Positions 6,691 to 50,340 of a stretch of DNA of 64,000 nucleotides are shown piece by piece. The DNA lies in contig CAYGQE010000028.1 of NCBI GenBank assembly GCA_964351995.1, positions 3,980 through 67,979 of the forward strand, given 5' to 3'. The stretch comes from an uncultured Acidimicrobiaceae bacterium (GTDB taxonomy: Bacteria; Actinomycetota; Acidimicrobiia; Acidimicrobiales; SZUA-35). The position numbers were made by a program, and so were the translations under genes. The notes under the pieces were generated by a model. The model saw only the letters and a list, made by a program, of their open reading frames with translations. It was not told the origin of the DNA and did no database searches. Positions within the stretch are counted from its first letter, which is position 1, and each line of letters begins with the position of its first letter.

Positions 6691-8301
6691 ATGCAACCCA
6701 TCTCGATTGCCACCTGGAGCGAGCTTCCGAATCGTGTTCCGCAGGGGGCGCTTGTCGGCAATGTCGATCTTGTAATCGTGCGTTATGAAGAGAACCACTC
6801 GGTGCTCTTCGGTCGCTGTCTTCACCGTGGCGCGCTCATGGCTGACGGCAGCCTCAGTGGCGATGATTTGATCTGTGGTCTGCATGGTTGGGACTACGGC
6901 ATCAAGACCGGCATCAGCGCCTACAACAACGCCGAGGTGCTGGAGAAGTTCTCGAGCTGGATCGAAGACGACCAGTTGATGGTCGACGCCGACGAGATCG
7001 GTGCGTGGGAACGAAAGAATCCGCAGCCGTACAACCGTGACGCCTATCAGGGTGCGTACCAGGATGTGCATGGCGCGCCGGAGGAGCCCCATGTTGGGCT
7101 CATCCGAAACCTCGCGAATGACGGGCTGACCAAGACTGGCCATCACGGTCCGACGACCTCGATGGGTGTGCCTCGCGATCAGTTGCCGTTGTGGGATGAC
7201 ATTCAGTTCGTGACCGCTCAGGTGGCGACTCGGCCGTTGCTCGATGAGGAGCCGGTGAGTTCCACGACGGTCATCGGGCCGAACGCCGTTCGTCCGCTGG
7301 AGCTCGATCGTCCGTTGTTTGTCTCCGACATGAGTTTTGGTGCGTTGTCGGAAGAGGCCAAGGTTGCCTTGGCGCTTGGCGCTGATCAGGCCGGCACGGG
7401 CATCTGCAGTGGTGAGGGCGGCATGTTGCCGGAAGAGCAGGCGGCCAACAGCCGCTACTTCTACGAGCTGGCGTCTGGCCGTTTTGGGTGGGAGATCGAG
7501 AAGGTCGAAAAGGTTCAGGCGTTTCATTTCAAGTTCGGGCAGGGGGCGAAGACGGGCACCGGTGGTCACCTTCCTGGCAACAAGGTGCAGGGCAAGATCG
7601 CCGAGGTTCGAGGCCTCGAAGAGGGCGAGCCGGCGATCAGTCCGGCGACGTTCCCTGATCTCGTTTCGATCGAGGACTACCAGGTGGTGGCGGCCGAGGT
7701 CCGGGAAGCGTCGGGTGGTATTCCGATTGGGGCGAAGTTGAGCGCTCAGCACATCGAGGCCGACATCGACGCGGCGCTGGCCATTGGTGTCGATTACGTG
7801 ATTCTCGATGGTCGTGGGGGTGGCACGGGTGCTGCGCCGGTGATCTTCCGGGACAACATCAGCGTGCCGACGATTCCGGCGCTCGCTCGGGCTCGTCGTT
7901 ATCTCGACTCACTTGGTCGGGGCGACGTCACGTTGGTGATCACCGGCGGGTTGCGCACGCCGTGGGACTTCGCCAAGGCGATGGCGCTGGGTGCTGATGC
8001 CGTGGCGGTTTCGAATGCGGCGATGCAGGCCATTGGTTGCATTGGTATGCGGGCGTGTAACTCGAACAACTGCCCGGTTGGGATTGCGACCCAGCAGCTT
8101 CACCTTCGTGAGCGGCTGCCGGTGCAGGATGCGGCCGACCGGCTCGAGCGTTTCTTCCGATCAAGCACCGAGTTGATGGAGGTGTTGGCCCGGGCGTGTG
8201 GTCATCGCTCGCTCGATCAATTCAGCATCGACGATCTCACCACGTTCGATCGTGAGATGCATCACCTCACCGGTATCGCCTACGGCGGTGTGCTTGCCTG
8301 A
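6691..8301 (+). CDS. Rieske [2Fe-2S]-fused FMN-binding glutamate synthase-domain protein, copy 1
   Basis: CLHRG..CGLHG Rieske motif; MSFGALS, SGEGG, GQGAKTGTGGHLPG and DGRGGGTGA; CIGMRACNSNNCP cluster motif. Confidence 0.9.
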   Translation: MQPISIATWSELPNRVPQGALVGNVDLVIVRYEENHSVLFGRCLHRGALMADGSLSGDDLICGLHGWDYGIKTGISAYNNAEVLEKFSSWIEDDQLMVDADEIGAWERKNPQPYNRDAYQGAYQDVHGAPEEPHVGLIRNLANDGLTKTGHHGPTTSMGVPRDQLPLWDDIQFVTAQVATRPLLDEEPVSSTTVIGPNAVRPLELDRPLFVSDMSFGALSEEAKVALALGADQAGTGICSGEGGMLPEEQAANSRYFYELASGRFGWEIEKVEKVQAFHFKFGQGAKTGTGGHLPGNKVQGKIAEVRGLEEGEPAISPATFPDLVSIEDYQVVAAEVREASGGIPIGAKLSAQHIEADIDAALAIGVDYVILDGRGGGTGAAPVIFRDNISVPTIPALARARRYLDSLGRGDVTLVITGGLRTPWDFAKAMALGADAVAVSNAAMQAIGCIGMRACNSNNCPVGIATQQLHLRERLPVQDAADRLERFFRSSTELMEVLARACGHRSLDQFSIDDLTTFDREMHHLTGIAYGGVLA

Positions 8302-23993: not shown

Positions 23994-24586
23994 CTATGTC
24001 GGGACGCTGCATGATGGGGAAGCACGTAAACAGTGACTCGCATGACGGCCCGAACCCCTGCTCTTTGTTCTTCCGGGCACGCTCGAGGGGCGGAACTTGG
24101 TGGTCGGCGTTTGTCGTTTGGCGGTTCGTCCGTCGATGACTTGGAAGACTCGTGGGCTCCAGTACATGCGGTCGTACTGGTCGTCGCCGCAGGGCTCGAG
24201 GAGGCGGAGTTCGACGAGGGCTGTGATCGCGTCGCAGTTGGCTTGGTTGGAGCGGCCGTGGCGTCGGTGGGTATCTGCGGCGGTGAGGATGGGGTACGCG
24301 ATGAGTTGCTCGGCGATCTCGACGGCGATGCGCGCTCGCGGTCTCGCTGTCCGGACGGTGGCGGCGAACTCTTCTCGCAGTGAGAGCAGTCGCATGATGC
24401 GATCGTGTCTGGTGCTTGCTTCAGCGGAGACTGCGGTGGCGAAGAACTCGATCCACGGGGCACAGTCACCCGTTTCGCTGACTGCGAAGAGATGTTGGCG
24501 GTACTCCCAGGTGAACGAGTTCCTTCGGTCGATTCGTTGCGCTGATTGTGTGCTTGGTTCAGACCAGGGGAAGCGAGGCGAGGCAT
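23994..24586 (-). pseudogene. Fic-family protein C-terminal remnant
   Basis: EYRQHLFAVSETGDCAPWIEFFATAV plus a wHTH-like tail; catalytic HPFxDGNGR absent. Confidence 0.55.
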
Positions 24587-25391: not shown

Positions 25392-25501
25392 ACGGCCCAA
25401 CCGGCCCGGTTCGGACCTGATCGGTGATCGAGGGAAAGTGGAGCGGGTACAAGATCGGGCGCCTCTTGACCAGCGGGACCTCTCCCTTTACCCTTACATT
25501 C

Positions 25502-26737: not shown

Positions 26738-27180
26738 TCGCTAAACGTAATACGGATAAGTGCGATTGTCATGCGGCTTTCCTCGATGCCGGCTCGGGCG
26801 CGGAGGGAATTGCTGTAGGCCGCCTTTTCTCTAGCGACCCTTTGGATAGCGGGCCGTTTCCCTTTCGGCTTGTCTGTCAACTGGAAAGGAATTCGAAGAG
26901 TCGAGCCCTCACGTAGGTGACTGCTTGGGCGATCCCACCGAACTTGGATTCTCGAGGATGTCCGCCAAGTTTCGAGTGTGAAACTTGGAATTGGACGCCC
27001 GTAGTCCAAGTCTTGGGGTCTCGGGAAGGACCCTCGCATTACGACCGACTTTGCCACCTGAGCTGCTACCGCTGATCGTCGCGGAATCGAACTGTCGTCA
27101 GTGGCCGAGACTCGATCGGTATCTCGGTTCGGGAAAGCTGGCAGTGCAAGCCTCTGCCGCAAGTCATCTCTCAGGCGAAG

Positions 27181-27228
27181 TGGAGCGGGTACGGGGAATC
27201 GAACCCCGATATTCCGCTTGGGAAGCTG
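27181..27228 (-). repeat. Degenerate tRNA-Gly 3' copy (att2)
   Basis: 46/48 identical to 48502-48549. Confidence 0.92.
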
Positions 27229-27291
27229 CCGGGCGGGTTGGCTGCTGCGACGCCCTGGCCAGGGTTTTCCCTGGTGAGGGTGTGTCGCGGT

Positions 27292-29082
27292 CTAATCCAG
27301 CTGCTCGGTAGGGGCAGGCGTCACCCGGTCCTCTGAGATCACACACAGCTTCCATTTGTTGTGCCGGCTGCGGCGCTTCTTGCTGGTCGGCTCGACTTCG
27401 CCAGCTTCCTCCATGCGGCGGAGCCATCGAAGCACGCCTTCCTTGGTGATGCTCAGTTCTTCGGCGAGTAGCTGGGCGGTCTGGGGGCCGGGTTCGAGGA
27501 TCGCCCGAATCGCTGGTCGGCGATCTTGTCGGGAACGCTGCGGTGGTTTCTCGACCAAGTCCAGGCGCTGCTGGGGCTCGGATTCGTCGGCGCCAGCGAG
27601 GACCCACACAGCCCAGCGTCGGTCGCTCGTCTTGTCCAAGAGGCCCTCGGCTGCCAGCCCGGTGAGCTCACGCGTGGCTGTGAGCGAGTCCGTTCCGGTG
27701 ACCGAGCGGTACTGCTGGTTCGTGATTCGTTGGTTGCGATGCAAGAAGGCGAGGGCCAGACGCTGCCGGTCGTTGAACGAGGCGGTGTCGATGGTCGAGA
27801 GCCATGCGACGGCGTCATCGTCCAGTAGGCCGTGATTGCGGACGACCATTCGGAACTCGCGGACGTTGTCGATGACCTGTGGCGGCTCCATCCCTGCGTT
27901 GCGTAGAGCTGCAGCAGTTGCGAGAAGGCCGGAGCCTCGGTTCTCGCAGACGGTACGGCTTGTTGATTCGATCTCGACGTCCTCGAGAAGCTTTGCAAGT
28001 CGAGCGTTGCGGGATGAGGACACGGGCTCGGCCAGGAGATCCTCGCGGGAAACCGGACCATGCAGGCCCCCTGGGCTTGATACCTCGAGCCGGTCTGGAT
28101 AGAGCGAGACGCGAACCTGGGTGCCGTGGGCCAGCGGGTGGTAGTCGCGGTGCATCAGGGCGTTGGCGACGAGTTCTCGGATCGCCTCTTCTGGGTACTC
28201 CCACCGATCTTCCCGACCGAGCCCAACCACAATCGATCGGCGTTTCATGTTGCGGCGCAGCGCCGCAAGGGTCTCAGCCACCATGAGAGGGATGGGGCCA
28301 TCGATTGACTGGTTGTCCAGAAATCTGGTGCCGTCCTGAAGCGGTTCACCAGAAATCGTGGCGAGAGCCACGAAGGTCACATCGAGTTGCGGTGCGAACT
28401 GCTGAGGGAATCGACCGAGCGCGAGCAGGCCAGCCAGCGTCACGTAGCGAACGCCGTCCCGGCTGGTCGTGACACCCATCATGTCGAGAATCTCGTCGTC
28501 GGAGGCCTCGGAGAACACCTTCCCCCGAGTTGAACGCAGTCGCCGGATGAGAGCGCTCGTGAGCACTGCATCCAGATCGTCGAGAGTCGCTTCTTCGACC
28601 AGGGCTCCGTCATCGTTGGGCTGGCCTCGCGAGGACCGGAGAACGTGAACCTCGTAGGTCGAAAGCGCCCGGTCGCCATCGAAAGTTCTGACAAAGGATC
28701 CCCGCTCGATGCCGCGGGACTTCACGAAGCACGGCTTCTGGGTTGGCGGAAGCTCCTCGACAATGGCAGCGACGACCAAGCGGCCCTCGATCTGGATTAT
28801 CTCGATCTCGGGTCGGATGGGTGGTTCGAGTTGATCGGCGCATGCTGAGGCGAGGTCTGAGGCGAGCTTGCCGGAATCCACCTCGAGCACAGAGAAGTTG
28901 GTGTCCTCGTCAAGGCCCAGAACGATCAAGCCGCCGTCGGTGTTCGAGAACGCTGAGACAGTTTCGACGATCGTCTTCGACAGACCTCCAACAGCGGCCT
29001 TGACCTCGACTGTGGTGAGGTCGGTCCTCGCGGCGCGCAACTTGGGAAGCACGTCGTGGACAAGCGTGTCGAGATCAGGCAA
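27292..29082 (-). CDS. AlbA_2 (Schlafen-like) + HATPase_c_4/RecG-C + wHTH protein
   Basis: VEVK..ETVSAFSNTDGGLIVLG, RELVANALMHRDY, SPGGL, RNARL and ENRGSG; two C-terminal HTHs. Confidence 0.85.
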   Translation of the reverse strand: MPDLDTLVHDVLPKLRAARTDLTTVEVKAAVGGLSKTIVETVSAFSNTDGGLIVLGLDEDTNFSVLEVDSGKLASDLASACADQLEPPIRPEIEIIQIEGRLVVAAIVEELPPTQKPCFVKSRGIERGSFVRTFDGDRALSTYEVHVLRSSRGQPNDDGALVEEATLDDLDAVLTSALIRRLRSTRGKVFSEASDDEILDMMGVTTSRDGVRYVTLAGLLALGRFPQQFAPQLDVTFVALATISGEPLQDGTRFLDNQSIDGPIPLMVAETLAALRRNMKRRSIVVGLGREDRWEYPEEAIRELVANALMHRDYHPLAHGTQVRVSLYPDRLEVSSPGGLHGPVSREDLLAEPVSSSRNARLAKLLEDVEIESTSRTVCENRGSGLLATAAALRNAGMEPPQVIDNVREFRMVVRNHGLLDDDAVAWLSTIDTASFNDRQRLALAFLHRNQRITNQQYRSVTGTDSLTATRELTGLAAEGLLDKTSDRRWAVWVLAGADESEPQQRLDLVEKPPQRSRQDRRPAIRAILEPGPQTAQLLAEELSITKEGVLRWLRRMEEAGEVEPTSKKRRSRHNKWKLCVISEDRVTPAPTEQLD

Positions 29083-29385
29083 GTGAACTCCTCATACAAC
29101 TTGTTGGATCCTACCGCTTAGGTTGTGTGTGGAGTTGTTAGTTGCTGGTTAGTTGACGGCTACCGTCGATCGCGTGGGCCCGCCTATGGTCAAAGATGCA
29201 CCCCAGGCTTCCATCGCAAGAGCAGGCAAGTTGGCCGTTTCCCACTCTCACCTGTCGACACCGCTCACCGGTCTATCACCGAGGGCTCTAGAGGCTCCGC
29301 TCTTTGCAACAGCCGTGCAATTCGCAAAGTTCTCAGCGCAGACGCTGATAATCGGACCCTGCGAGAAGCCGTCTACCAGGGAAAA

Positions 29386-29433
29386 TGGAGCGGGTACGGG
29401 GAATCGAACCCCGGTATTCAGCTTGGGAAGCTG
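29386..29433 (-). repeat. att1, exact copy of the 3' 48 nt of tRNA-Gly
   Basis: Identical to 48502-48549. Confidence 0.96.
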
Positions 29434-29533
29434 CCGGGCGAGTTGGCCAGCGAAGGCTCTGGCCAGGGTTTTCCCTGGTCAGGGTGTGTGTCGTGTGTCG
29501 ACATCAAGCCCCGCTAATGACCCCTCGAAACCC

Positions 29534-33929: not shown

Positions 33930-35540
33930 ATGCAGCCAATTTCGATTGCCACCTGGAGCGAGCTTCCGAACCGAGAGCCGCAGGGTGCGCTTGTCGGCAA
34001 TGTCGATCTTGTGATCGTGCGCTACGAAGACAACCACTCGGTTCTGTTCGGGCGCTGTCTTCACCGTGGCGCTCTCATGGCCGACGGCAGCCTCAGCGGC
34101 GACGATCTCATCTGTGGGCTGCACGGTTGGGACTACGGCATCAAGACCGGTATCAGCGCGTACAACAACGCCGAAGTGCTGGAGAAGTTCTCGAGTTGGA
34201 TCGAAGACAACCAGCTGATGGTTGACGCCGACGAGATCGGTGCATGGGAACAAAAGCACCCCCAGCCGTACAACCGCGACGCCTACCAGGGCGCCTATCA
34301 AGACGTGCACGGCGCGCCGGAAGAGCCGCATGTTGGGCTCATTCGAAACCTGGCCAAGGACGGGCTGACCAAGACCGGCCACCACGGTCCGACCACCTCG
34401 ATGGGGGTGGCTCGTGATCAGTTACCGCTGTGGGACGACATTCAGTTCGTCACCGCCCAGGTGGCGACTCGCCCGCTGCTCGATGAAGAGCCGGTCAGCT
34501 CCACGACCATCATCGGGCCCAACGCCGCACGCCCACTGGAGCTCGATCGTCCGCTGTTCGTTTCCGATATGAGCTTCGGTGCGCTGTCTGAAGAGGCCAA
34601 GGTCGCCCTGGCCCTCGGCGCAGACCAGGCGGGCACCGGTATCTGCAGCGGTGAGGGCGGCATGTTGCCAGAGGAGCAGGTGGCGAACAGTCGCTACTTC
34701 TACGAGCTGGCCTCGGGCCGTTTCGGTTGGGAGATCGAAAAGGTCGAGAAGGTCCAGGCCTTTCACTTCAAGTTTGGCCAGGGGGCGAAGACGGGCACCG
34801 GTGGTCACCTGCCTGGCAACAAGGTCCAGGGCAAAATTGCCGAGGTTCGAGGCCTCGAAGAGGGCGAGCCGGCGATCAGTCCGGCGACCTTCCCCGACCT
34901 CGTCACGATCGAGGACTACCAGACCCTTGCGGCGGAGGTCCGCGAAGCCTCCGGTGGTATCCCGATTGGGGCGAAGCTCAGCGCCCAGCACATCGAGTCC
35001 GATCTTGACGCTGCGCTTGCGATCGGCGTCGATTACGTGATTCTCGATGGTCGTGGAGGTGGCACCGGTGCTGCGCCGGTGATCTTCCGCGACAACATCA
35101 GCGTGCCAACGATTCCGGCGCTCGCTCGGGCTCGACGTTATCTCGACTCACTCGGTCGGGGCGACGTCACGCTCGTGATAACTGGCGGCCTTCGAACCCC
35201 GTGGGACTTTGCCAAGGCCCTTGCACTCGGCGCCGATGCGGTGGCTGTTTCCAATGCGGCGATGCAGGCCATTGGTTGCATTGGTATGCGGGCGTGTAAC
35301 TCGAACAATTGCCCGGTCGGCATTGCGACCCAGCAGCTGCACCTTCGTGAGCGGTTGCCGGTGCAGGATGCCGCCGATCGACTCGAGCGCTTTTTCCGGT
35401 CAAGCACTGAGTTGATGGAAGTGCTGGCTCGGGCATGTGGTCACCGCTCGCTCGATCAATTCAGCATCGACGATCTCACCACGTTCGACCGAGAGATGCA
35501 TCACCTCACCGGTGTCGCCTACGGCGGCATCCAGGCGTAG
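33930..35540 (+). CDS. Rieske-fused FMN glutamate synthase-domain protein, copy 2
   Basis: Same motifs and length (536 aa) as 6691-8301. Confidence 0.9.
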   Translation: MQPISIATWSELPNREPQGALVGNVDLVIVRYEDNHSVLFGRCLHRGALMADGSLSGDDLICGLHGWDYGIKTGISAYNNAEVLEKFSSWIEDNQLMVDADEIGAWEQKHPQPYNRDAYQGAYQDVHGAPEEPHVGLIRNLAKDGLTKTGHHGPTTSMGVARDQLPLWDDIQFVTAQVATRPLLDEEPVSSTTIIGPNAARPLELDRPLFVSDMSFGALSEEAKVALALGADQAGTGICSGEGGMLPEEQVANSRYFYELASGRFGWEIEKVEKVQAFHFKFGQGAKTGTGGHLPGNKVQGKIAEVRGLEEGEPAISPATFPDLVTIEDYQTLAAEVREASGGIPIGAKLSAQHIESDLDAALAIGVDYVILDGRGGGTGAAPVIFRDNISVPTIPALARARRYLDSLGRGDVTLVITGGLRTPWDFAKALALGADAVAVSNAAMQAIGCIGMRACNSNNCPVGIATQQLHLRERLPVQDAADRLERFFRSSTELMEVLARACGHRSLDQFSIDDLTTFDREMHHLTGVAYGGIQA

Positions 35541-41178: not shown

Positions 41179-44100
41179 CTATAGCTCGATACCCAGATCG
41201 GGTCCGTCGATGCGATGGGTGTCGACCCGTTCGAGCGCGTCGATCAGGTCCTGATTGCTTGGGCGAGCGAGTCCGAGGTCGGTTTCGAGTGTGGTCCTCG
41301 CCCTTGATCGGGCTTGATCGTCGCCGCCCTGTTCGAGTTGGTTGGTGTTGTCGTTGCGTTCGTTGGTGAGGTCGGGGAGTTGGTCGACGGCGGCTTCGAG
41401 GTCGGTGATTCGTGCGGTCAGTTCCGGGATGCCTCGGTCGGTTGCGGCAAGGTCATCCTTGAAGCCGGTGATCTTGATGGGAAGTTCGGCGACGGACTTC
41501 TTCGCTTCGTTGATGGTGTTGCGGTGTTTGCGGCGCTGGAGTGGTCGGTCGTAGGCGCCGAGGATTGCTCGGGCGTCGCCAAGCTTGATCCGAGCGTTGT
41601 CGAGTTGTTTGGCGATGCCGGGTCGTTCGGTGGTGAGTTGTTTGAGTTGGCGCCGCGTTTGGGCGAGTTCTGGTCGGGCGTGGTTGATGATGTTGGCGAG
41701 TTCGTTCTGTCGTTGTTGGAGACGATTGATCTCATCGGCCGGTAGCTGCCCTGGGAGGCGTGGTCCGGCGGCGAGTTCGCGTTGGCGGACTCGTGCTGGT
41801 TGGTCGATCCATTGGTTGGTGACGGCTGTTTTGATGGTGTCGAGGGCGGTGGGGTGGTCGGGTGCGGTGACGTACGCGGTGTTGGTGTGTCGCCCGCGGG
41901 TGAGGGCGACGTAGATGCCGGGGCTGTTGGTGGGGGTGTCGAGGACGAGGAGGGCGTGGTCGACGGTTCGTCCTTGTGCGGCGTGGCTTGTTTGGGCGTA
42001 GCCGAGTTGGACGTGTTGTTGGACGTAGTTCGCTGGCAGCCGCACCGACTCAGCGGTGTCGCCGATGCGGCTGGCGTGGATGGAGCCGTCGGTGTCGATG
42101 TTGGTGATGGTCCAGCGATCACGGTTCTTGACGGAGTGCTGTTGCGTGGTGGTGATGGTGCGTTGGTTGCGGCGGGTGACGATCTCGTCACCGACGTGGA
42201 GCCGGTCACCGGCGGGTGTGGTCAGCCGCACCCCCGAATCGTCGAGAAGGCCGGCCGTGATGAGTGTTTGTTGGGCGGTGTGGTTGAGTCGTTTGACGGT
42301 TTCGTTCGACGGTGCGAGCAGCATGACGTCGGCGCCGGCTCCACGATGTTGGTGCCAGTCGGTGATCGCTGTTTGGTCCATACGGGTGATGGTGCCGTGT
42401 TGGATCCGGCCGTGTGCGTCGTAGGTAGCGATGATGTTGGGTTTGCCTCGGCGGAGTTGGAGTGAGGCTTCTCGTTCCCATGGCTGGTGGAAGCGGCGGA
42501 CGGTGTCGAGTTCGATAGGTCCGTGGGTGTCGATGAGGTGTTGGAACATGCCGCCCCGTCCGACGGCGGAGAACTGCATCGGGTCACCGACGAGGGCGAC
42601 TCGCCAGTGTTTCTGGTCGGCGAGGATCGTGAGGTGTGCGAGGTGGCTGGTGGAGACCATCCCGGCCTCGTCGATGATGAGCGTTGATCCGGGCGGGAGG
42701 TTGAAGCGCCTCGACGGCCCGTCGGGGTGTCGGTGTTCGTAGAGCAGCTTGTCGATTGTGTCGGCTGCAACGCCGGTCTCTGAGGCGAGAACGTCGGCGG
42801 CTGCTGCGGACGGTGCGACACCAAACACCACACGCCGATCGGCCTGGAGCTGAGCGACAGCAGGGGAGAGAGCGGTGGTCTTTCCGGTGCCGGCTGGGCC
42901 GACGATCATGACGAGGTCGGCGTCACCGGCAACAGCTGCCGCAGCTTGGGACTGCGGCCCAGACAGTTCCACGTCCGACCGCGAAGCCGCTCGGGTGTTG
43001 GGGGTGCCTGGGACGTGGGAGCGGCGGTCGGCCCAGGCGGCGAGGTCGTCTTCTTGTTCGAGCACGAACTCGGTGGTGAGGGCCCGGTCGGTCGCGGGTT
43101 CAGAGTACGGACGCCCATCACGGCGGACCGTGTCGCCGTGAGGCACAGGTCGGGAGATGTCGACGCACTGCTCACCGATCGTGCGCTGGGTCCAGGTCTC
43201 GAGTTTGTCGACGAAGTCTGCGGTGTTCTGGATTGTGAAAGTGGGGAGCTGCCTGGCGATCTCGCGTGAGAGCTCGGCTGGCCGCCAAGACGACTGTGAC
43301 TCCTCGAGCGCCTTCATCGCGCCGTTGCAGGCGATCTCCCAATTACGATCCGTCAACACCCGCCCGGCAATCCGGCCGATGACGAACCGCTCCAACTGCC
43401 CCGGCCCGATCCCCAGTTCGACGAGTTGTTCGGTCCAGTGGGTGTGGAGCTCAGCGGCGTTGACGTCCTTGGCTTTCACCGGTCGGGAGTCGGTGACGGC
43501 TTCGCGTTCCAGTCTCCATCGTTCGCGTGGTGTGGGGTCTCGGTCGAAGGTGTCAACGAACCGATCGATCTTGGCATCCAGACGTTTGTCGATCGCTGCG
43601 GTCCTGGTCGAGAACTCGGCCAACACCTCTGATGGGAAGTGGGCGATCTCGGCGATGCCGTTCACGACGGGTTCGAATTCGACACCGAGCCGGCGAGTGA
43701 GTTCGGTGCGCATGGTGGCGTGGTAGATCGCCGACGCCGTTCGTTGGTCGAGTTTGAGTGTTCGGGCGTCGAGGGCGAGCCATCGGCCGTCGGGGGATAG
43801 GACGCGGTTGGGGACCACGATGTGGGTGTGGAGTTGTGGGTCGAGGGCTCGGGAGGTGTGCTGCCGGAATGTGGCGGCCACGATCCCTTCGGCGTCGACG
43901 GTCGCTACCTCGCCTGCGATTCGGAATCGGGTGTGTGCGGTGCTCTGCACCCACTGGATGATCGCCGCCACGCCGGTGTCGTGCGATGCCAGAACGTCCG
44001 CACGCACCTGGTCGCTTCCGACGGCGAATAGGACCGACATCGACTTCGGTGCTGAGGCGGTGATGTCGAACCCGCGAACAGAGTTCTCCCCATACGCACG

Positions 44101-44313
44101 CCCCAACCGCAACGTCTCGTCGTGGGGGTAGGCGCCGGCCATCAGGTTCAAGAACTCGTCGTCACCAACCTCACCGCTGAGACCGAGGGCAGCGGCAGCT
44201 TTGCCGTGCCAGCGGCCCCGGGGCTCATCCGCGTCGAGGTAGTAATTCGGCAACGCATCCACGTAGTAGGAACCGGTGTCGGTTCCTTTGAGGGTGGTGA
44301 CCCGAACCGTCAT
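41179..44313 (-). CDS. MOBF (TrwC-type) relaxase-helicase
   Basis: N-terminal YY..YY, D..SAPKS.S, HTSR..DPQLHTH, Walker A GPAGTGKT, DEAGM and GYAQTSHAAQG; coiled-coil tail. Confidence 0.93.
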   Translation of the reverse strand: MTVRVTTLKGTDTGSYYVDALPNYYLDADEPRGRWHGKAAAALGLSGEVGDDEFLNLMAGAYPHDETLRLGRAYGENSVRGFDITASAPKSMSVLFAVGSDQVRADVLASHDTGVAAIIQWVQSTAHTRFRIAGEVATVDAEGIVAATFRQHTSRALDPQLHTHIVVPNRVLSPDGRWLALDARTLKLDQRTASAIYHATMRTELTRRLGVEFEPVVNGIAEIAHFPSEVLAEFSTRTAAIDKRLDAKIDRFVDTFDRDPTPRERWRLEREAVTDSRPVKAKDVNAAELHTHWTEQLVELGIGPGQLERFVIGRIAGRVLTDRNWEIACNGAMKALEESQSSWRPAELSREIARQLPTFTIQNTADFVDKLETWTQRTIGEQCVDISRPVPHGDTVRRDGRPYSEPATDRALTTEFVLEQEDDLAAWADRRSHVPGTPNTRAASRSDVELSGPQSQAAAAVAGDADLVMIVGPAGTGKTTALSPAVAQLQADRRVVFGVAPSAAAADVLASETGVAADTIDKLLYEHRHPDGPSRRFNLPPGSTLIIDEAGMVSTSHLAHLTILADQKHWRVALVGDPMQFSAVGRGGMFQHLIDTHGPIELDTVRRFHQPWEREASLQLRRGKPNIIATYDAHGRIQHGTITRMDQTAITDWHQHRGAGADVMLLAPSNETVKRLNHTAQQTLITAGLLDDSGVRLTTPAGDRLHVGDEIVTRRNQRTITTTQQHSVKNRDRWTITNIDTDGSIHASRIGDTAESVRLPANYVQQHVQLGYAQTSHAAQGRTVDHALLVLDTPTNSPGIYVALTRGRHTNTAYVTAPDHPTALDTIKTAVTNQWIDQPARVRQRELAAGPRLPGQLPADEINRLQQRQNELANIINHARPELAQTRRQLKQLTTERPGIAKQLDNARIKLGDARAILGAYDRPLQRRKHRNTINEAKKSVAELPIKITGFKDDLAATDRGIPELTARITDLEAAVDQLPDLTNERNDNTNQLEQGGDDQARSRARTTLETDLGLARPSNQDLIDALERVDTHRIDGPDLGIEL

Positions 44314-44764
44314 CGCCAAGCCTCGGGAAGGGTGTGGGAAGTTGCCCGGGAGAGCACAAGCGCAGCTGTGCACTCGTCTGTTCTTTGGGTGTTGGATCTT
44401 TCCCGAGGCATGCGCCGAGGGTGCGGTCGCTTGTCGAGGACGTATGTGAAAACGAACTCCATGCCATAGCTACGTGCATGCGACGGCTCTGTTTGTGACA
44501 AGAAATCGCGAGAAGCCGTCCTCGTCGGGGCTCGTTGTGGGTGGAAGGTGATCTCGCCTGGCCCCGACGATCGGGGACTGCTGCGGATGACCCCGGCGAC
44601 GAGCCGCATCCCTTGGGAAGTGAAGCCCCGTCGCTCCTGTCCGCGGCGTGTCACTTCATCTTGCGGGGCCTTGCGATGTCTTCGGTTGAGGTCAGCGCAT
44701 CAAGGTCGCCGACCGGCGTGCCGACGTCCAACGCCCAACCCGTCTCGTCCTTTACGATCGGAGG

Positions 44765-45670
44765 GTGCTGTACGACGTGTTTGTGTGTCATGCGAGTGAG
44801 GACAAGGACGATTTCGTTCGACCGCTCGTCGAACGGCTCAGGGAGGAGCACGTCGAGGTCTGGTACGACGAGTTCAGCCTGAGGGTCGGCGACAGCCTGC
44901 GGAGATCGATAGACGTCGGGCTACGCCAATCCCTGTTCGGGATCGTCGTGCTCAGCCCGCACTTCTTTGAGAAGCAATGGTCACAGTGGGAACTTGACGG
45001 CCTGGTTGCCCGGCAGAACGACGGTGCCAACGATGTGATCTTGCCGATCTGGCACGGAATTGACCGGAGCGACATCATGGCCTACGACATCCACGGTCAA
45101 ATCGCTTCCCTTGAGGGTCTCGTCGGTCTCGTCGAGAGCCTTAGTGATGCTGACTTCGTGTTTTTGGGTGACTACATCAACAAGGGAAGGGCCTCTCGCG
45201 AGGTGCTCACGCTCCTTCTCGAACTCGAGACCGCAGGGCGAGCGACTGTCCTCGGCGGCAACCATGAGGCCGCCCTACTGGAGGCACTGGATACGGGGGA
45301 GGTGGCGAGCTTTCTCAGGATGGGAGGGGCGGCCACAATCCGCTCGTTCGTGGGGCCAAGAGTTGGACCGAACGTGACCGAAGGGTTCCGCAATTCCTTC
45401 CCTGACAACCTCGTGCAATTCCTACGCCGGATGCCCGACGCGTACGAAGACGAAGAGGTCATCGCTACTCATGCTGGAACAAGGACCGGGAAATTCTCCG
45501 TTTCTGCACACTCGTACGTAGGCCCAGTGCCACGAGTCGGTCCGATGGCGGCCGAAGTCGACACCGGGTGTGGATCCAAAGGCGGAATCCTGACGGCCTT
45601 CTTCTGGCCAGCTCGGACCTGGGTGCAGGTCGATGAGAACGGGAATCGAGTTCGGTCCGAGATCCGGTAG
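44765..45670 (+). CDS. TIR domain fused to PPP-type metallophosphoesterase
   Basis: YDVFVCHASEDK..VWYD..GDSL..LSPHFF..WSQWEL (TIR), then DIHG, GDYINKG, GNHE, THAG and DTG. Confidence 0.85.
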   Translation: MLYDVFVCHASEDKDDFVRPLVERLREEHVEVWYDEFSLRVGDSLRRSIDVGLRQSLFGIVVLSPHFFEKQWSQWELDGLVARQNDGANDVILPIWHGIDRSDIMAYDIHGQIASLEGLVGLVESLSDADFVFLGDYINKGRASREVLTLLLELETAGRATVLGGNHEAALLEALDTGEVASFLRMGGAATIRSFVGPRVGPNVTEGFRNSFPDNLVQFLRRMPDAYEDEEVIATHAGTRTGKFSVSAHSYVGPVPRVGPMAAEVDTGCGSKGGILTAFFWPARTWVQVDENGNRVRSEIR

Positions 45671-45705
45671 AGGATGGCTGATTCAAGAGGCTTCGATCGG
45701 CGACG

Positions 45706-47130
45706 TCAGCTTTCTTCCGCTCGTTGAACCAACCAAGCGGCTTTCTCCTCACCCTTTGCGTCTCGTATGCCTTGATTGAGTTCTAGACACTGTTGGGCCC
45801 AAGTTCGTTCGTCGGCTGAATTGCCGAGGGAGCGTGCGGCCTGAGCCATCAACCGAAGCGAGATCGCTTCGCCTCGTTGGTTCCCAGTGTTGCGGTTTAT
45901 CGCACGAGCCCGTTCAGCATGGCTCAACGCGGATGTGGCATCGCTTTGGCGGATGCTGATCTGCGCCAGAAGAACTGCGCAATTCGCGCGAAGACTCGGC
46001 AGATCGCCAGTAAGGAGTTGCTCTGCTTCGCGTGCAAGGCCGTGAGCTTCGTCAAGGTTTTGGAGCGCCACCTCGGCTCTCGCCATGTTGATAAGCGATT
46101 GTGCTACGTCAGCAGGCGAACCGCTGTTGCGGCGAAGTTCAAGAGACTCTGAGAAGTGTTCGATGGCGGTGAATGGCCTACCCATGGCCTTCTCGGCAAG
46201 CCCGAGATCATCGAGAATCCGAGCCCGGACAATGGCCGCATCTTCAGATTCCGGGAGCATGTGAAGCGCTGCTTTGAGCTTCTCGATTGCCTCGAGCGGC
46301 TCCGACGCTTGGCGAAGGAGCCTTGCGTGAGCAGCGAAGACTTCGGCGGTGTGGATGTCCCAGAGCGCTCCGTGGTGGGCGGTCGCCACTTCGATTGCCC
46401 TAGCGGTTCTTTCCAAAGCTTCGTCGATCCGGCCCACCCTTGCGAGATGTTTCGCAAGCGCCAGCAATTCACCAGAACCACCAAGGTCAACTGCTCGCTC
46501 AAGCCGAGCGATTCCTAGGTCCACGACTCCTAGTGAGATCAGACGCTCGCCTTCCAGTCGAGCGGTTTGAGCTCCCAGCACGTCTAATCCTGACGCGGGA
46601 AGCAGGTTGACCGCTCGCACCACCTTGGCTTCAGAATTTGCCCATCCTCGCAGCCGTCTTCCGAGCCTCTCTTTGAGGTCGGCGGGATTCGAGGGGTTTT
46701 CATACAGGAGGGCGTGATGCTCTTCCATTGAGTGTCTGAGTGCTCGAACTTGATCTTCAGGCTCTCGACCGGGCATGAATGCAACCCAGATGTCGCGCAT
46801 CGGACTCTCCGGCCTGCCAAGCGCCAACAGACCGGTGAACAGCTCCTCCTCGGTCCCGGATGAATAGCCAGTCTGGCCGCCAGGATTGCTGCCCCAGCGT
46901 TCCTTGAACATGACAATCATGAAGTCGCACGACTCCACGAAACGGTTGATCTCTGATTGGGGCCGGACCGTTGTGCCGCTGATATGTTCCCACCCGACCA
47001 GCGCAATCTCAGGAGTCTTGCGATCGGGCAACCCGTTGTACGCAGTCACCTCGTCTCGGATCACCTGACGTTCAGCGTCAAGGTCCCCGGGTGACGCAAG
47101 GAATACTCGGAATGGGCGCGGTGTAAGCAC
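45706..47130 (-). CDS. DUF4062 (TIR-like) + TPR protein
   Basis: RVFLASPGDL..ER, CD..I..RWGS and SGTEEE, followed by TPR-like helical repeats. Confidence 0.8.
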   Translation of the reverse strand: MLTPRPFRVFLASPGDLDAERQVIRDEVTAYNGLPDRKTPEIALVGWEHISGTTVRPQSEINRFVESCDFMIVMFKERWGSNPGGQTGYSSGTEEELFTGLLALGRPESPMRDIWVAFMPGREPEDQVRALRHSMEEHHALLYENPSNPADLKERLGRRLRGWANSEAKVVRAVNLLPASGLDVLGAQTARLEGERLISLGVVDLGIARLERAVDLGGSGELLALAKHLARVGRIDEALERTARAIEVATAHHGALWDIHTAEVFAAHARLLRQASEPLEAIEKLKAALHMLPESEDAAIVRARILDDLGLAEKAMGRPFTAIEHFSESLELRRNSGSPADVAQSLINMARAEVALQNLDEAHGLAREAEQLLTGDLPSLRANCAVLLAQISIRQSDATSALSHAERARAINRNTGNQRGEAISLRLMAQAARSLGNSADERTWAQQCLELNQGIRDAKGEEKAAWLVQRAEES

Positions 47131-47288
47131 TTTGGGAACCTAGCCGTCGCTAGGTGGAGAGCTGGCCGATGTGCAAGTTGGCAGAAGCAGTCGCTGCGTG
47201 CCGAACCGCGTCCGTTAGTCGGTGAATCTGGGTTCCTTCCCGATGGCATAACCCTTGAAGGACTGCCGCGAGCCGTTGCGCTAGGGGG

Positions 47289-48398
47289 TCAGTTGCGTTT
47301 CAGGTCCAAATTCTTTGGCATCCTGGCCTCGATGGCCGCAGCGATCTCGGCGTCCCGGCTCTCGGAGGCTTTGAGGTAGCGGAGCGATGCATCGGACGAG
47401 GAGTGACCCATGCGGGACATGATCTCTCGAAGCGAAGCGCCGGCTGTTGCTGCCGATGTCCCGGCGAGATGCCGCAGATCGTGGAACCGCGTGGTGCTTG
47501 GAAGTCCAGCTTGCACCAACGCCTTCTTCCAGTACGGGGCGAAGTACCGGTTGAGCAGCGGGCTGCCCTTCAACGACGTGAAAACGAAGGCGTGCGGTTC
47601 ATCTAAGGCGAACGTGTCGAGGTGATCGGCGAGTAGCTCGGCTGTGCTCGATGGGATCGAGACGGTTCGGTGAGCGGCGTTTGACTTCGGCGGGCCGAGC
47701 GTCGGCCCTTCTCCTCTGATGAACATGAGCGCTTGGTCGACTCGCAGTGTTCGTTCCTCGAGGTCGACGTTGGCCCGGGTGAGGCCGGTGAGTTCGCCGA
47801 AGCGAAGGCCTGAGGTTGCGGCCACCCACACGAGGGCGCTGAAGCGAGGTTCGATGACCGAGGCAAGCTTCTGCACGTCATCCCAATCGAGAGGCGGCCG
47901 CTCGGCCATCTGCTCGACGGCTGCGCCCTTGATGTGGACCGGGTTGACCCGGAGCAGTCCGTCGTCGACGGCGGTGTCCATCATCGTGCGGAACAGTCGG
48001 TAGATCTTCGCCACCGTGTTGGGGTGCTTCTTCGATTTGGCTTGCCGCCCATGCCACGAGCGAACAGCAGTGGGTGTGATCTTGCGCAGCTCGACGCTTT
48101 CGAACTCTTCGAGAATGTGGGCGAGCTGTGACTCGTAGGTGTCTCGAGTTCGTGGCCTAACGTCACGCGCCTCGAGCCAACGACGCGAGTAGTTGCCGAA
48201 CGTTTCCCGACCGCTCGACGGGTCGACGTGACGTCCGCCGAGGATCTCGGTTTCCATCGTGGCGAGCCACGCTCGCGCCTCGGCCTTGGTGGCGAACGTG
48301 GTGTCCGCCGGCACCTGATTTCCGAGGCGGTAGTAGCGCGCCTGATAGCGCCCGCTCTTCAGTTTGCGAATGTTCCCGAACGGCCTGCTGGACCCCAT
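47289..48398 (-). CDS. int: Tyrosine recombinase/integrase
   Basis: SGRYQARY arm-binding domain; SGLRFGE, PKS, HDLRH, MGHS and LRY catalytic residues. Confidence 0.95.
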   Translation of the reverse strand: MGSSRPFGNIRKLKSGRYQARYYRLGNQVPADTTFATKAEARAWLATMETEILGGRHVDPSSGRETFGNYSRRWLEARDVRPRTRDTYESQLAHILEEFESVELRKITPTAVRSWHGRQAKSKKHPNTVAKIYRLFRTMMDTAVDDGLLRVNPVHIKGAAVEQMAERPPLDWDDVQKLASVIEPRFSALVWVAATSGLRFGELTGLTRANVDLEERTLRVDQALMFIRGEGPTLGPPKSNAAHRTVSIPSSTAELLADHLDTFALDEPHAFVFTSLKGSPLLNRYFAPYWKKALVQAGLPSTTRFHDLRHLAGTSAATAGASLREIMSRMGHSSSDASLRYLKASESRDAEIAAAIEARMPKNLDLKRN

Positions 48399-48407
48399 GC
48401 GTGCCTA

Positions 48408-48441
48408 CTGTTCTCCGTTGTTCTAGGCACACTCTAGGCAC
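48408..48441 (+). repeat. Putative integrase arm-type sites upstream of int
   Basis: Tandem TCTAGGCAC; near-identical to 29534-29567. Confidence 0.75.
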
Positions 48442-48501
48442 GGAGACTGGCTGGGTCCAGGGTGAATATGCCGATTGGGCACTCTGACCTGGGAGTTCAT
48501 A

Positions 48502-48575
48502 TGGAGCGGGTACGGGGAATCGAACCCCGGTATTCAGCTTGGGAAGCTGATGTTCTACCATTGAACTACACCCGC
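48502..48575 (-). tRNA. tRNA-Gly(CCC)
   Basis: GCGGGTGTAGTTCAATGGTAGAACATCAGCTTCCCAAGCTGAATACCGGGGTTCGATTCCCCGTACCCGCTCCA folds as a cloverleaf with anticodon CCC and encoded CCA. Confidence 0.97.
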
Positions 48576-48639
48576 ATAACCCTCCATGTTAGTCGCTGGT
48601 GCTGGGTGAATCGACCCCGCTGCGTGGCCTTCTGGCTCA

Positions 48640-50340
48640 TTGCCTGCAGAGCTCGATAGGGCCAACCTTGGACCTGTTCGAACGAGGGAAGGGGGGCTCC
48701 TGTTGCCGCTGCGTCGCCAGCATGAGCTCGAATCGAGCATCTCTCGGTCAGCGGCGGAGCGATTGCATCGTCCGCTGACCGAGACGACTCTCTCGGTGCT
48801 GCTCGGCTTTGTGTTCCTGGCTTGCGTCGCCGTTGGCGCCCGCCTCGTCGCCGATCTGCCGCCAGCGTCGATCGCACAATCGTGGCTTCTCGCTTCGGCT
48901 GGCCGTTCGAATCTGCCACTCGTTCTCGCGGCGATTGCAGCGCTCGCCGGCTTGTGGCGATTCGGAAAAGGCTCGCTACTGATCTCTTGGGCCGAACTCG
49001 ATCGGGGCCGAGCTCTTCAGGGCTTCAGCACCGCCTTGGTGTTCGTGTTGACCTGGCGGCACCTGGCTGCTGACTTCGACTATGCATACGGCCAGTGGTG
49101 GGCACTGGACCGGATCGGCCTCGTGCTGTTCGGCGCTCTCGCTGTCTGGCGCCCCGTTGCACTGTTGGCCTTCATCGTCCAGATCCGACTGCTGCAAGCG
49201 CCACTCCGCTCTGCGTTCGGCCTGGCGTCGGGGGCAACGCTTGACGACCTTCCGATCCTCGCCCTCATCGCTGTGGTAGCGACCGTGCTGGTCACCGTCG
49301 TGGTCGGCGATCGCAAGACACACGTGTTTGTCAATCTGATCGCAGCGGCGACCGCGGCTCAGTTCTTCGTGTCTGGACGGCGCAAGCTTGCCGATGGGTG
49401 GTTGGCTGACAATGACCTGTCGAACCTTCCGCTCAACGGTTACGCCCAGGGTTGGCTTGCCGCCGGTGATGGTTCGCTCGCTCGAGCACTGTCAGACTTC
49501 TTCGCTACGTTCCGCTGGCCGTTGCTCGTCGCCACCGTCGTGCTCGAAGTCGGCGCCGTCGTCTTGCTCGCACGACGACGAACACTGATGGTGGCACTCA
49601 TCGGCTGGACCGGGTTTCACCTGTTCGTGTTCCTGAGCTACGGGTTCTCCTTCTTGGAGTGGGCCATGGTCGAGCTCGGCGTGGTTGCTCTGCTGTTCGG
49701 GGCAGCGGGTGCGATCTGGTCCAAACCAGCGTTCCGACCGCTGCCAGTCGTGCTCACAGTTGTTTTCGTTGTGTTCGGCGGCTTCATCTTCAAACCGCCG
49801 ACCCTTGCCTGGTTCGACGGTCCGATGACCTACGCCTACGAGTTCAATGCCGTGGATGCCAATGGGAACGAACGCTTGTTGGTAGCCGACGACTTCGCAC
49901 CCCACGAGGCGGCCGCTGCCTTCGGGTTCCTTCACCTCGGGCCGACGTCGCCACTCGCTGCTGGCTACGGGGCGCTCAATCGTGAGCGATTCGAGGATTT
50001 GACCGGTGTGGTCGATTGGGACGAGATCAGCGAACTCGAGTCGCCAGTTGCAGCGGAGGACCCGCGGCGTGATCAGGTCGTTGCCAACATCGAGCAGTTC
50101 TTACTGGCGTCGTGGAATGAGCCGTCGATCTTCGATCGACTGCCGCATGCGCCGACCCGCTACGCCACCGAGCGCGAGGGTCAGAACTACGTCGATGGAA
50201 CCGCTCTGGTCTCACTTTCTGTCACGAGAGTCACCTCGCTGCGCACCGATGACGACGTCCTCATTCGTCGCGAAGAGGTGGTCGAGTTCACTGTCGTCGG
50301 CAATGAGGTCTCGGTCCAGTGGGTGGAACCACCCGCCTGA
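48640..50340 (+). CDS. Polytopic membrane protein, possibly HTTM-like (start uncertain)
   Basis: About ten hydrophobic segments and a soluble C-terminal domain. Confidence 0.6.
   Translation: MPAELDRANLGPVRTREGGLLLPLRRQHELESSISRSAAERLHRPLTETTLSVLLGFVFLACVAVGARLVADLPPASIAQSWLLASAGRSNLPLVLAAIAALAGLWRFGKGSLLISWAELDRGRALQGFSTALVFVLTWRHLAADFDYAYGQWWALDRIGLVLFGALAVWRPVALLAFIVQIRLLQAPLRSAFGLASGATLDDLPILALIAVVATVLVTVVVGDRKTHVFVNLIAAATAAQFFVSGRRKLADGWLADNDLSNLPLNGYAQGWLAAGDGSLARALSDFFATFRWPLLVATVVLEVGAVVLLARRRTLMVALIGWTGFHLFVFLSYGFSFLEWAMVELGVVALLFGAAGAIWSKPAFRPLPVVLTVVFVVFGGFIFKPPTLAWFDGPMTYAYEFNAVDANGNERLLVADDFAPHEAAAAFGFLHLGPTSPLAAGYGALNRERFEDLTGVVDWDEISELESPVAAEDPRRDQVVANIEQFLLASWNEPSIFDRLPHAPTRYATEREGQNYVDGTALVSLSVTRVTSLRTDDDVLIRREEVVEFTVVGNEVSVQWVEPPA

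Follow-up and report, generated by a model that had tools for sequence, protein, structure and literature searches.

DUF4062, a domain also called NIR, has been described in preprint text as a TIR-like NADase domain that defends bacteria against phage by depleting NAD+, with its catalytic glutamate between positions 97 and 108 (10.64898/2026.05.01.722283; 10.64898/2026.09.04.749371). Three 2026 preprints on DUF4062 cover Swarozyc, NIR in Avs2, Vulcan, Vesta and Evangelion. As their text describes these systems, Vulcan is a single-protein NADase defence in which NIR/DUF4062 is fused to HEAT repeats (10.64898/2026.09.04.749371), Swarozyc and Evangelion consist of a DUF4062 core with an auxiliary region (10.64898/2026.05.01.722283; 10.64898/2026.06.25.731849), and Vesta joins a small NIR protein to an alkaline phosphatase (VstB) that is dispensable for defence. 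Metis is portrayed as a PF00149 NAD+ diphosphatase, MisA, with the HAD phosphatase MisB, which is dispensable, removes the nucleotide trigger and prevents self-toxicity. In Hailong, as summarised in review text on Tan et al. 2025, HalB constantly makes oligo-dA that keeps the effector HalA, an ion channel, shut, and phage exonuclease removes the oligo-dA (PMC13434031). Here we analyse a 64,000-nucleotide stretch of contig CAYGQE010000028.1 from an uncultured Acidimicrobiaceae bacterium (the window), in which a slot between a relaxase and an integrase gene holds a TIR-phosphoesterase open reading frame (ORF) and a gene for a DUF4062-tetratricopeptide repeat (TPR) protein. Sequence comparison makes it likely that this slot is a damaged copy of a three-gene actinobacterial module, made up of a nucleotidyltransferase (NTase), a phosphoesterase and a DUF4062-TPR protein, and that the TIR-phosphoesterase ORF is a scar; the three-gene module itself is probably an anti-phage system.

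A chimeric reading frame in the slot

The slot consists of two convergent ORFs, 44765..45670 on the forward strand (301 aa) and 45706..47130 on the reverse strand (474 aa), separated by 35 nt, an arrangement that the earlier note had described correctly. Its features are the following.

44374..44764, no strand: spacer from the relaxase start to the chimeric ORF, with stops in all three forward frames
44765..45085, forward strand: TIR-derived head, codons 1-107, with GTG start, MLYDVFVCHASEDKD... and the catalytic-type E76 in WSQWEL
45066..45079, forward strand: possible internal start, read from the sequence, with GGAG at 45066-45069, a 7-nt spacer and an in-frame ATG at 45077-45079 (Met105)
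45086..45670, forward strand: phosphoesterase-derived body, codons 108-301 plus stop, a small calcineurin-type metallophosphoesterase
45706..47130, reverse strand: DUF4062(NIR)-TPR gene, 474 aa, Pfam PF13271 and TPR_12
46636-47130, reverse strand: N-terminal TIR-like NADase-type domain, aa 1-165, with SGTEEELF motif E94-E96
45721-46533, reverse strand: TPR array, about aa 200-470, with an LGN/Pins TPR match at E 2e-15

In Pfam the forward ORF matches TIR_2 over aa 5-98 (E 3.9e-19) and Metallophos over aa 108-175 (E 6.3e-07), and its TIR head matches the ThsB1 profile (E 5.9e-36) and that of the PADLOC candidate PDC-S66 (E 1.5e-51). The nearest relatives of this head are stand-alone TIR proteins of ~475 aa (mostly ~450-480 aa) with 75-82% identity over aa 1-108, and likeness at the DNA level to 80 loci of that family begins at 44752-44766 and ends no later than 45085. 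At the join, Y107/D108, the window reads ...ILPIWHGIDRSDIMAY/DIHGQIASL, the TIR family ...ILPIWHGVERSDIITY/SPPLADK... and the phosphoesterase family MNTEVVFVG/DVHGNLSAL; put as consensus, ...DIMAY/DIHGQ in the window stands beside ...[LI][AT]Y/SPPLADK and M..E.AFVG/DIHGN in the two families. The head ends after strand D, with its TIR_2 match stopping at profile position 92 of 122 and its coverage of the PDC-S66 profile running from 149 to 253 of 282 (149-280 in the intact relative P0019), and it lacks the last ~27 TIR profile positions as well as the C-terminal domain of ~340 aa that follows in the parent family. It therefore falls short of the complete TIR fold of five strands and five helices, which includes strand E and helix E.

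The phosphoesterase body lacks the family's first ~9 residues (M..E.AFVG), has the TIR-derived ...DIMAY in their place and has lost the near-invariant G before D108. Residues D108, H110, D136, N166, H167, H236 and H249 are kept and are invariant in 20 sequences including the window's, and the motifs DxH, GD, GNH(E), H and H are all present, GNHE lying at aa 165-168. The body passes the Pfam criterion for the small PrpA/ApaH/Pnkp-like group of PF00149 (30.5 bits against a cut-off of 21.5) and is 44-54% identical to stand-alone ~202-aa phosphoesterases, those of ~200 aa in the protein search matching at 46-55% over the rear ~60% of the chimeric query. The GC content at third codon positions (GC3) drops from 0.794 in the TIR part to 0.677 in the phosphoesterase part, compared with 0.594 in the DUF4062-TPR gene, 0.759 in the relaxase and 0.77 in the integrase; the contrast within the chimeric ORF fits two origins. 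Initiation at Met105 would yield a 197-aa phosphoesterase without the TIR head, and by its sequence the enzyme could still be produced, either as the 301-aa chimera or from the ATG at 45077.

A word-index search of 5.8 billion clustered proteins (lengths 165-527; 5088 matches among 8000 scored) found both TIR and PF00149 solely in the window's own cluster, P0001, which comprises two contigs, among the 120 matches listed; each of the remaining 119 is either a phosphoesterase of ~200 aa or a protein with TIR alone. An exhaustive phmmer search of 1.84 billion representatives without length limit gave 16243 matches at E <= 0.001, and among the 150 best no protein spans both halves, each aligning to the query over either ~1-181 or ~102-298. 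The top match in two stretches, P0241, has two TIR domains and no phosphoesterase, and two more of this kind, P0339 and P0352, score at TIR-only level and were not individually checked. On these searches the ORF is a singleton chimera of two unrelated genes. The earlier note had read it as a TIR domain with the WSQWEL glutamate fused to a phosphoesterase; E76, GNHE and both Pfam domains bear this out, but the TIR domain is incomplete and the fusion a one-off join, and the family of full-length fusions for which the note had suggested a homologue search does not appear among the matches listed.

The genome is a 163-contig assembly, and a merger of two contigs at a short shared word during metagenome assembly might in principle have created such a join. 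The runs that hold the full stretch all come from one study, maybe its source. We nevertheless regard an artefact as extremely unlikely. An independently built Logan contig of run X1 (4140 nt, depth 21), possibly the source sample, covers 44400-47200 with 0 differences, and a 192-nt contig from X4, another sample of the same study, covers 45055-45246 and so bridges the join at 45085/45086. The same protein is recorded from two contigs, and it would be improbable for a mis-join to fall precisely where the DxHG motif begins and also preserve the frame.

A biological alternative, along the lines of the earlier note, is that the ORF encodes a working two-domain enzyme, with a TIR domain that produces or degrades a signal derived from NAD and a phosphoesterase that acts on this signal, and that it forms a new two-gene defence system with DUF4062-TPR in which, in this lineage, TIR has replaced the NTase as signal maker. 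All 301 codons are open, the metal ligands of the phosphoesterase are complete, E76 aligns with a glutamate invariant in 18 TIR-family members (E107 of P0013), and the TIR head sits exactly where the three-gene module has its signal-making NTase. An AlphaFold2 (AF2) model, computed with an alignment from trimmed references, further gives the TIR part as a four-stranded half-domain with a predicted local distance difference test score (pLDDT) of ~69. Weighing against such an enzyme, the ORF is a singleton in both protein searches, the missing ~27 profile positions deprive the TIR domain of strand E and helix E, and the conserved C-terminal domain of the parent family is lost. Strand E and helix E form assembly interfaces that TIR NADases need. 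The head also differs at 2 of 40 columns that are at least 97% conserved in 67 relatives, one of them being R57L at a residue that is R in 67/67; a relative from another study, X6, which is 97.7% identical over 44716-45066, has G at 44934, the second base of codon 57, which would restore R; its contig stops 20 nt short of the join. In the model, pLDDT falls below 50 at aa 96-105 and reaches ~89 in the phosphoesterase part, values that offer no more than a weak hint. We hold the two-domain enzyme to be very unlikely, and the TIR head, which has neither strand E nor helices D and E, is probably inactive. Under the scar reading, which we prefer, the ORF serves as a caution for domain-architecture mining: a deletion can leave behind an uninterrupted, in-frame ORF with two domains within a defence slot, and here comparison with relatives alone exposed it.

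The parent TIR family deserves mention of its own. It comprises stand-alone proteins (80 metagenome loci, with P0013, P0019 and P0113 among its members) with a ThsB/PDC-S66-like N-terminal TIR domain and a C-terminal domain of ~340 aa (WWLD...AESN...MGWGRWGFPLP) that is well conserved and matches nothing in Pfam, and one scan confirmed at least 571 stretches. The 80 loci hold no phosphoesterase, DUF4062-TPR or NTase gene and no conserved neighbour. The ~475-aa family is a candidate single-gene defence family. A search with P0013 across 401 genomes of the phylum gave matches in 11, two of them full length (46-47% identity), and no close relative.

A three-gene module in Actinomycetota

We looked for relatives of the DUF4062-TPR gene by a pattern scan of one genome per species across 185,579 species. 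With the window protein alone the scan returned 40 pattern matches, none of which was confirmed, and an alignment of relatives was then used; this gave 35 loci, all in Actinomycetota. In 30 of the 35, a phosphoesterase gene lies within ~1.3 kb of the DUF4062-TPR gene (27 convergent and 10-90 nt apart, 3 collinear), while three of the remaining five loci end at a contig edge and two hold gene fragments. Clustering of ORFs brought out a third gene, ~260-300 aa long, which 29 of the 30 paired loci carry immediately upstream of the phosphoesterase and which overlaps it by 4 nt in at least 15. No fourth conserved gene was found among ORFs of at least 100 aa in the 35 loci, where no HalA model was searched, and no flank is conserved past the trio. 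The same trio (28% identity) lies on the Rhodococcus erythropolis plasmid pLRE138 (record positions 437645-440749), where RefSeq names the products DUF4062 domain-containing protein, metallophosphoesterase and nucleotidyltransferase domain-containing protein. Microlunatus lacustris also carries an intact trio. As these loci present it, the intact module is an NTase gene overlapping that of a ~202-aa phosphoesterase by 4 nt and an adjoining gene for a ~477-aa DUF4062-TPR protein, usually tail to tail. The pairing that the earlier note had suspected is thus real for the phosphoesterase and DUF4062-TPR, but it does not extend to TIR, which has a gene in 0/35 of these loci, just as the pair occurs in 0/80 of the TIR loci.

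The third gene is, by its sequence, a relative of HalB and not HalB itself. A profile built from 19 members matches three Protein Data Bank (PDB) entries for HalB (9dbh, E 1.4e-13; profile positions 30-210) across the catalytic core and the helical C-terminal half, with the GS...D.D motif kept and D49/D51 invariant. The NCBIfam model anti_phage_HalB (NF051895) gives E 6.6e-25 and a score of 88 bits where its equivalog cut-off requires 190, so the NTase is not a HalB equivalog; the match to MntA is weaker (E 0.0011).

No such gene is left in the window's genome. Three NTases searched by tblastn against the whole genome gave nothing at E <= 1e-3, and the 19-member profile gave 0 matches in the same genome (5.84 Mb, 97% complete, 163 contigs), in which there is likewise no second phosphoesterase of the module family and no trace of the TIR family's C-terminal domain. 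The spacer at 44374..44764 and the TIR head together occupy the place that the NTase gene has in intact modules, and the spacer contains no detectable NTase remnant. Across the 401 genomes of the phylum the NTase profile found only six MNT-like partial matches of ~110-130 aa and no family member, and the trio is therefore rare in this sample.

Further loci appear to have lost parts of the module. In Raineyella antarctica (L003, 8047-8448) only the last 14 NTase codons (...GSDYAEVEKILL) are left, beside an insertion sequence (IS)-like ORF that runs off the contig and that by eye we take to be of IstB type; the DUF4062-TPR and phosphoesterase genes there are intact, and the effector departs from the family at 1 of 86 invariant columns. 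From this remnant we read L003 as a second natural loss of the NTase. Two loci from metagenome-assembled genomes, one of them an Acidimicrobiaceae, hold frameshifted N-terminal DUF4062-TPR fragments alone (L033:6001-6638 and L035:6001-6365) with no phosphoesterase or NTase nearby, and these are, to judge from the fragments, further decayed copies of the module.

An integrase, a relaxase or a defence-type Pfam family lies within two genes of the trio in 13/28 loci, a count in which three loci (L004, L010 and L028) are close kin and from which two loci with Hypoth_Ymh or DUF2971 were left out. The families near the trio are integrase, TrwC, type I methylase, ThsA_Macro, KAP, PIN_8, AAA_21/DUF4435, Abi_C, HEPN_Swt1-DUF499 and M78-HTH. 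The trio might alternatively be a selfish addiction or regulatory cassette with no role against phage, such as an NADase of toxin-antitoxin type that is restrained through nucleotidylation and the removal of that modification. Its carriage on mobilisable elements and a plasmid, its 4-nt overlap and its tight linkage would also suit toxin-antitoxin logic, and the NTase superfamily includes MntA-type antitoxins, to which its matches are weak. The NTase is, however, far closer to HalB than to MntA, the DUF4062 proteins tested so far protect against phage via NAD+ loss, and the effector has outlived a natural loss of the NTase twice, unlike a toxin freed from its antitoxin. On balance we consider an addiction cassette unlikely.

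The DUF4062-TPR protein and a proposed mechanism

The earlier note had seen DUF4062 followed by TPRs in the reverse-strand ORF, and Pfam agrees, with DUF4062 at aa 8-97 (35.4 bits, cut-off 24.7) and TPR_12 in three stretches (E 4.5e-20). Full-length relatives measure 452-566 aa and are 41-47% identical. An AF2 model of aa 1-170 has a pLDDT of 84, and in a wide VIA-align search with this NIR model TIR domains make up nine of the 11 top chains (Z 12.0-10.3), with MilB, deoxyribosyltransferases and ThsB next; Foldseek against the PDB gave generic flavodoxin-like matches alone (TM 0.4-0.5). The residues E94, E95 and E96 of SGTEEELF, situated where helix C begins in the model, are invariant in sets of 25 and 27 family members. 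They stand close to the published catalytic glutamates E97 of KpSwz, E98 of Vulcan, E103 of VstA and E108 of PsAvs2, which were set beside them by position and not by residue-level alignment. The DUF4062-TPR protein is likely an effector-sensor and not merely a sensor, given the evidence in the preprints that DUF4062 is itself a TIR-like effector domain with NADase activity. This would reverse the roles given in the earlier note, which had cast TIR as effector and TPR as sensor; the usual gene upstream of the phosphoesterase is, moreover, the NTase. A complex prediction of DUF4062-TPR with phosphoesterase aa 105-301 scored 0.06 and 0.16 against a mark of 0.32, and a collection of phage records held no match to the DUF4062-TPR family.

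Comparison with relatives shows that the window copy has lost the NTase gene along with the first ~9 phosphoesterase codons, and that the first 107 codons of an unrelated stand-alone TIR gene are joined in frame to what is left, most likely through a single deletion or illegitimate recombination. In the mechanism that we propose for the intact module, the NTase would produce a nucleotide or oligonucleotide, the translationally coupled phosphoesterase would trim or clear it, and this product would tune the NADase, either as an inhibitor, as in Hailong, or as an activator. The TPR repeats would sense a phage cue and the NIR domain would hydrolyse NAD+, leading to abortive infection, by analogy with Vulcan, Avs2-NIR and Swarozyc. 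In the window copy the regulatory arm would be broken. The suggestion of the earlier note that the phosphoesterase processes or resets a nucleotide signal is plausible for the intact trio, with the NTase and not TIR as the likely signal maker. A more specific version is possible but tentative: the trio may be an undescribed anti-phage system that couples the logic of Hailong to a NIR NADase, with a protein-primed oligonucleotide, synthesised by the HalB-like NTase and released, trimmed or turned over by the phosphoesterase, as the ligand that gates the TPR-NADase; the window and Raineyella loci would then be NTase-less derivatives that still defend by DUF4062-TPR alone, like Vulcan.

Several observations weigh against the reading of the slot as a damaged copy with a scar. 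The single-deletion scenario remains unproven, as its parent arrangement, a TIR gene beside the trio, is found in 0/35 and 0/80 loci. The open, in-frame state of the chimeric ORF would arise by chance in 1 of 3 young scars and would equally be expected under selection. Signs of decay in the TIR head are weak; two of the 67 relatives also deviate at 2 columns. Of 97 columns invariant in 24 relatives, 12 are changed in the window DUF4062-TPR protein, against 0-5 in the relatives themselves; two of the 12 concern Arg residues of the loop that connects strand B to helix B in the model, and the protein may be attenuated or simply divergent. Finally, HalB-like inhibitor logic predicts that DUF4062-TPR should not last without the NTase, and its persistence in the window and L003 argues against that logic: as both lost the NTase and kept the effector, a simple rule that NTase loss is lethal is disfavoured.

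These same two loci would serve as natural tests of whether the NTase product is an inhibitor or an activator. Should the trio prove to be a defence system, it would link the constitutive DNA "guard" signal of Hailong with DUF4062/NIR NADases, which have so far been separate, would show HalB-type NTases wired to a soluble NADase in place of an ion channel, and would give a dedicated phosphoesterase a role in signal handling. The DUF4062/NIR family also occurs in human TEP1.

Mobile setting and comparison with described systems

The slot is bordered by the following features.

41179..44373, reverse strand: TrwC-type relaxase with helicase, left border of the slot, Pfam TrwC E 3.4e-74 and AAA_30 E 6.1e-53
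47289..48398, reverse strand: tyrosine integrase, right border of the slot, Pfam Phage_integrase E 1.3e-20
48475..48575, reverse strand: tRNA-Gly(ccc) at 48502..48575 and an attachment site (att)-like copy of its 3' part, found with ARAGORN; Rfam tRNA 71.8 bits

In two related relaxase-integrase elements from the same taxonomic order, the corresponding slot holds Fic together with a PIN_10 protein (G492) or a 1358-aa HTH-Mrr-STAND protein (G545). The expectation that an integrase-adjacent slot carries defence-type cargo is upheld by these elements, and by its gene content the slot is a cargo hot spot for such genes. The A/T-richness noted earlier by eye is a real but small dip, the GC content of 44765-47130 being 0.591 against a window mean of 0.621, at the 0.2 percentile among sliding windows of the same size. 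A scan of 44300-47350 found 0 promoter-like and 2 terminator-like sites, not above shuffles; an Rfam search of 44000-48700 matched the tRNA alone, and no RNA run was found to hold the stretch.

Full or partial copies of the tRNA-Gly 3' part occur four times in the window, at 25431-25450 (20 nt), 27154-27242, 29359-29447 and 48475-48563 (direct-repeat families D2 and D7). With partial copies recurring at 29.4, 27.2 and 25.4 kb, it seems that islands have accumulated one behind another at tRNA-Gly. By eye, no att copy was seen near 41 kb that would bound a small relaxase-to-integrase element. A 26-nt motif (GTTCTTCTAGGCAC...) lies near the tRNA-Gly copies at positions 24067, 26160, 29543 and 48417. 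The metabolic genes found between 29.4 and 48.5 kb include a glutamate-synthase-like gene, a Na/H exchanger, a Rieske-domain TPP enzyme, MscS, EgtB, EgtD and a sigma/anti-sigma pair. A 2.2-kb unit between two att-like copies is filled by a reverse-strand gene at 27295-29082 for a 596-aa protein with Schlafen AlbA_2, HATPase_c_4 and a MarR-like end, possibly the cargo of another small island. A 300-nt direct repeat of 90% identity (6691-6990 and 33930-34229), whose second copy lies inside the island's glutamate-synthase-like gene, points to paralogous metabolic genes 27 kb apart. A second relaxase copy lies on a short contig of the same genome (G000:C140:1-2407) with 88% DNA identity to window positions 41954-44360, and a related element is therefore present elsewhere in this genome.

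Among described systems, Thoeris ThsB and PDC-S66 have in common with this locus the TIR domain alone, through the head of the chimeric ORF, where it is truncated. As the parent TIR family has no conserved neighbour in its 80 loci, it has no ThsA partner there; in Pfam, neither the relaxase nor the DUF4062-TPR neighbour of the TIR head matches a ThsA family, the whole genome not having been searched for ThsA. Vesta and Metis resemble the trio in combining an NAD+-depleting effector with a phosphatase-type accessory enzyme, but their phosphatases belong to other families, the trio phosphoesterase lacks the sensor domain of MisA, and the trio adds an NTase. Swarozyc and Evangelion likewise have a DUF4062 TIR-like core as effector, travel on mobile elements and act by NAD+ depletion; unlike the trio, they are single-gene systems with other C-terminal regions, and the words TPR, phosphoesterase and nucleotidyltransferase are absent from the main texts of their preprints.

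Hailong and Vulcan come closest to the two ends of the module. The trio NTase is homologous to HalB across the catalytic core and the helical C-terminal half, but it falls short of the HalB equivalog cut-off, its partners are a soluble NADase-TPR protein and a phosphoesterase, ORF clustering brought out no HalA-like gene alongside the trio, and in the window the NTase is wholly absent. Vulcan, compared by description only, shares an N-terminal DUF4062 with a glutamate near 95-100, helical repeats directly after it with no NTPase between, and mobile or defence neighbourhoods; it differs in having HEAT repeats where the trio protein has TPRs, and every intact locus pairs the latter with NTase and phosphoesterase genes. 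The trio is described nowhere in the searched text on DUF4062, HalB NTases with NADases, and Hailong, a search that covered neither figures and supplements nor the original Hailong paper. Set against these systems, we rate the trio as a new combination of known kinds, NIR effectors and Hailong-type NTases.

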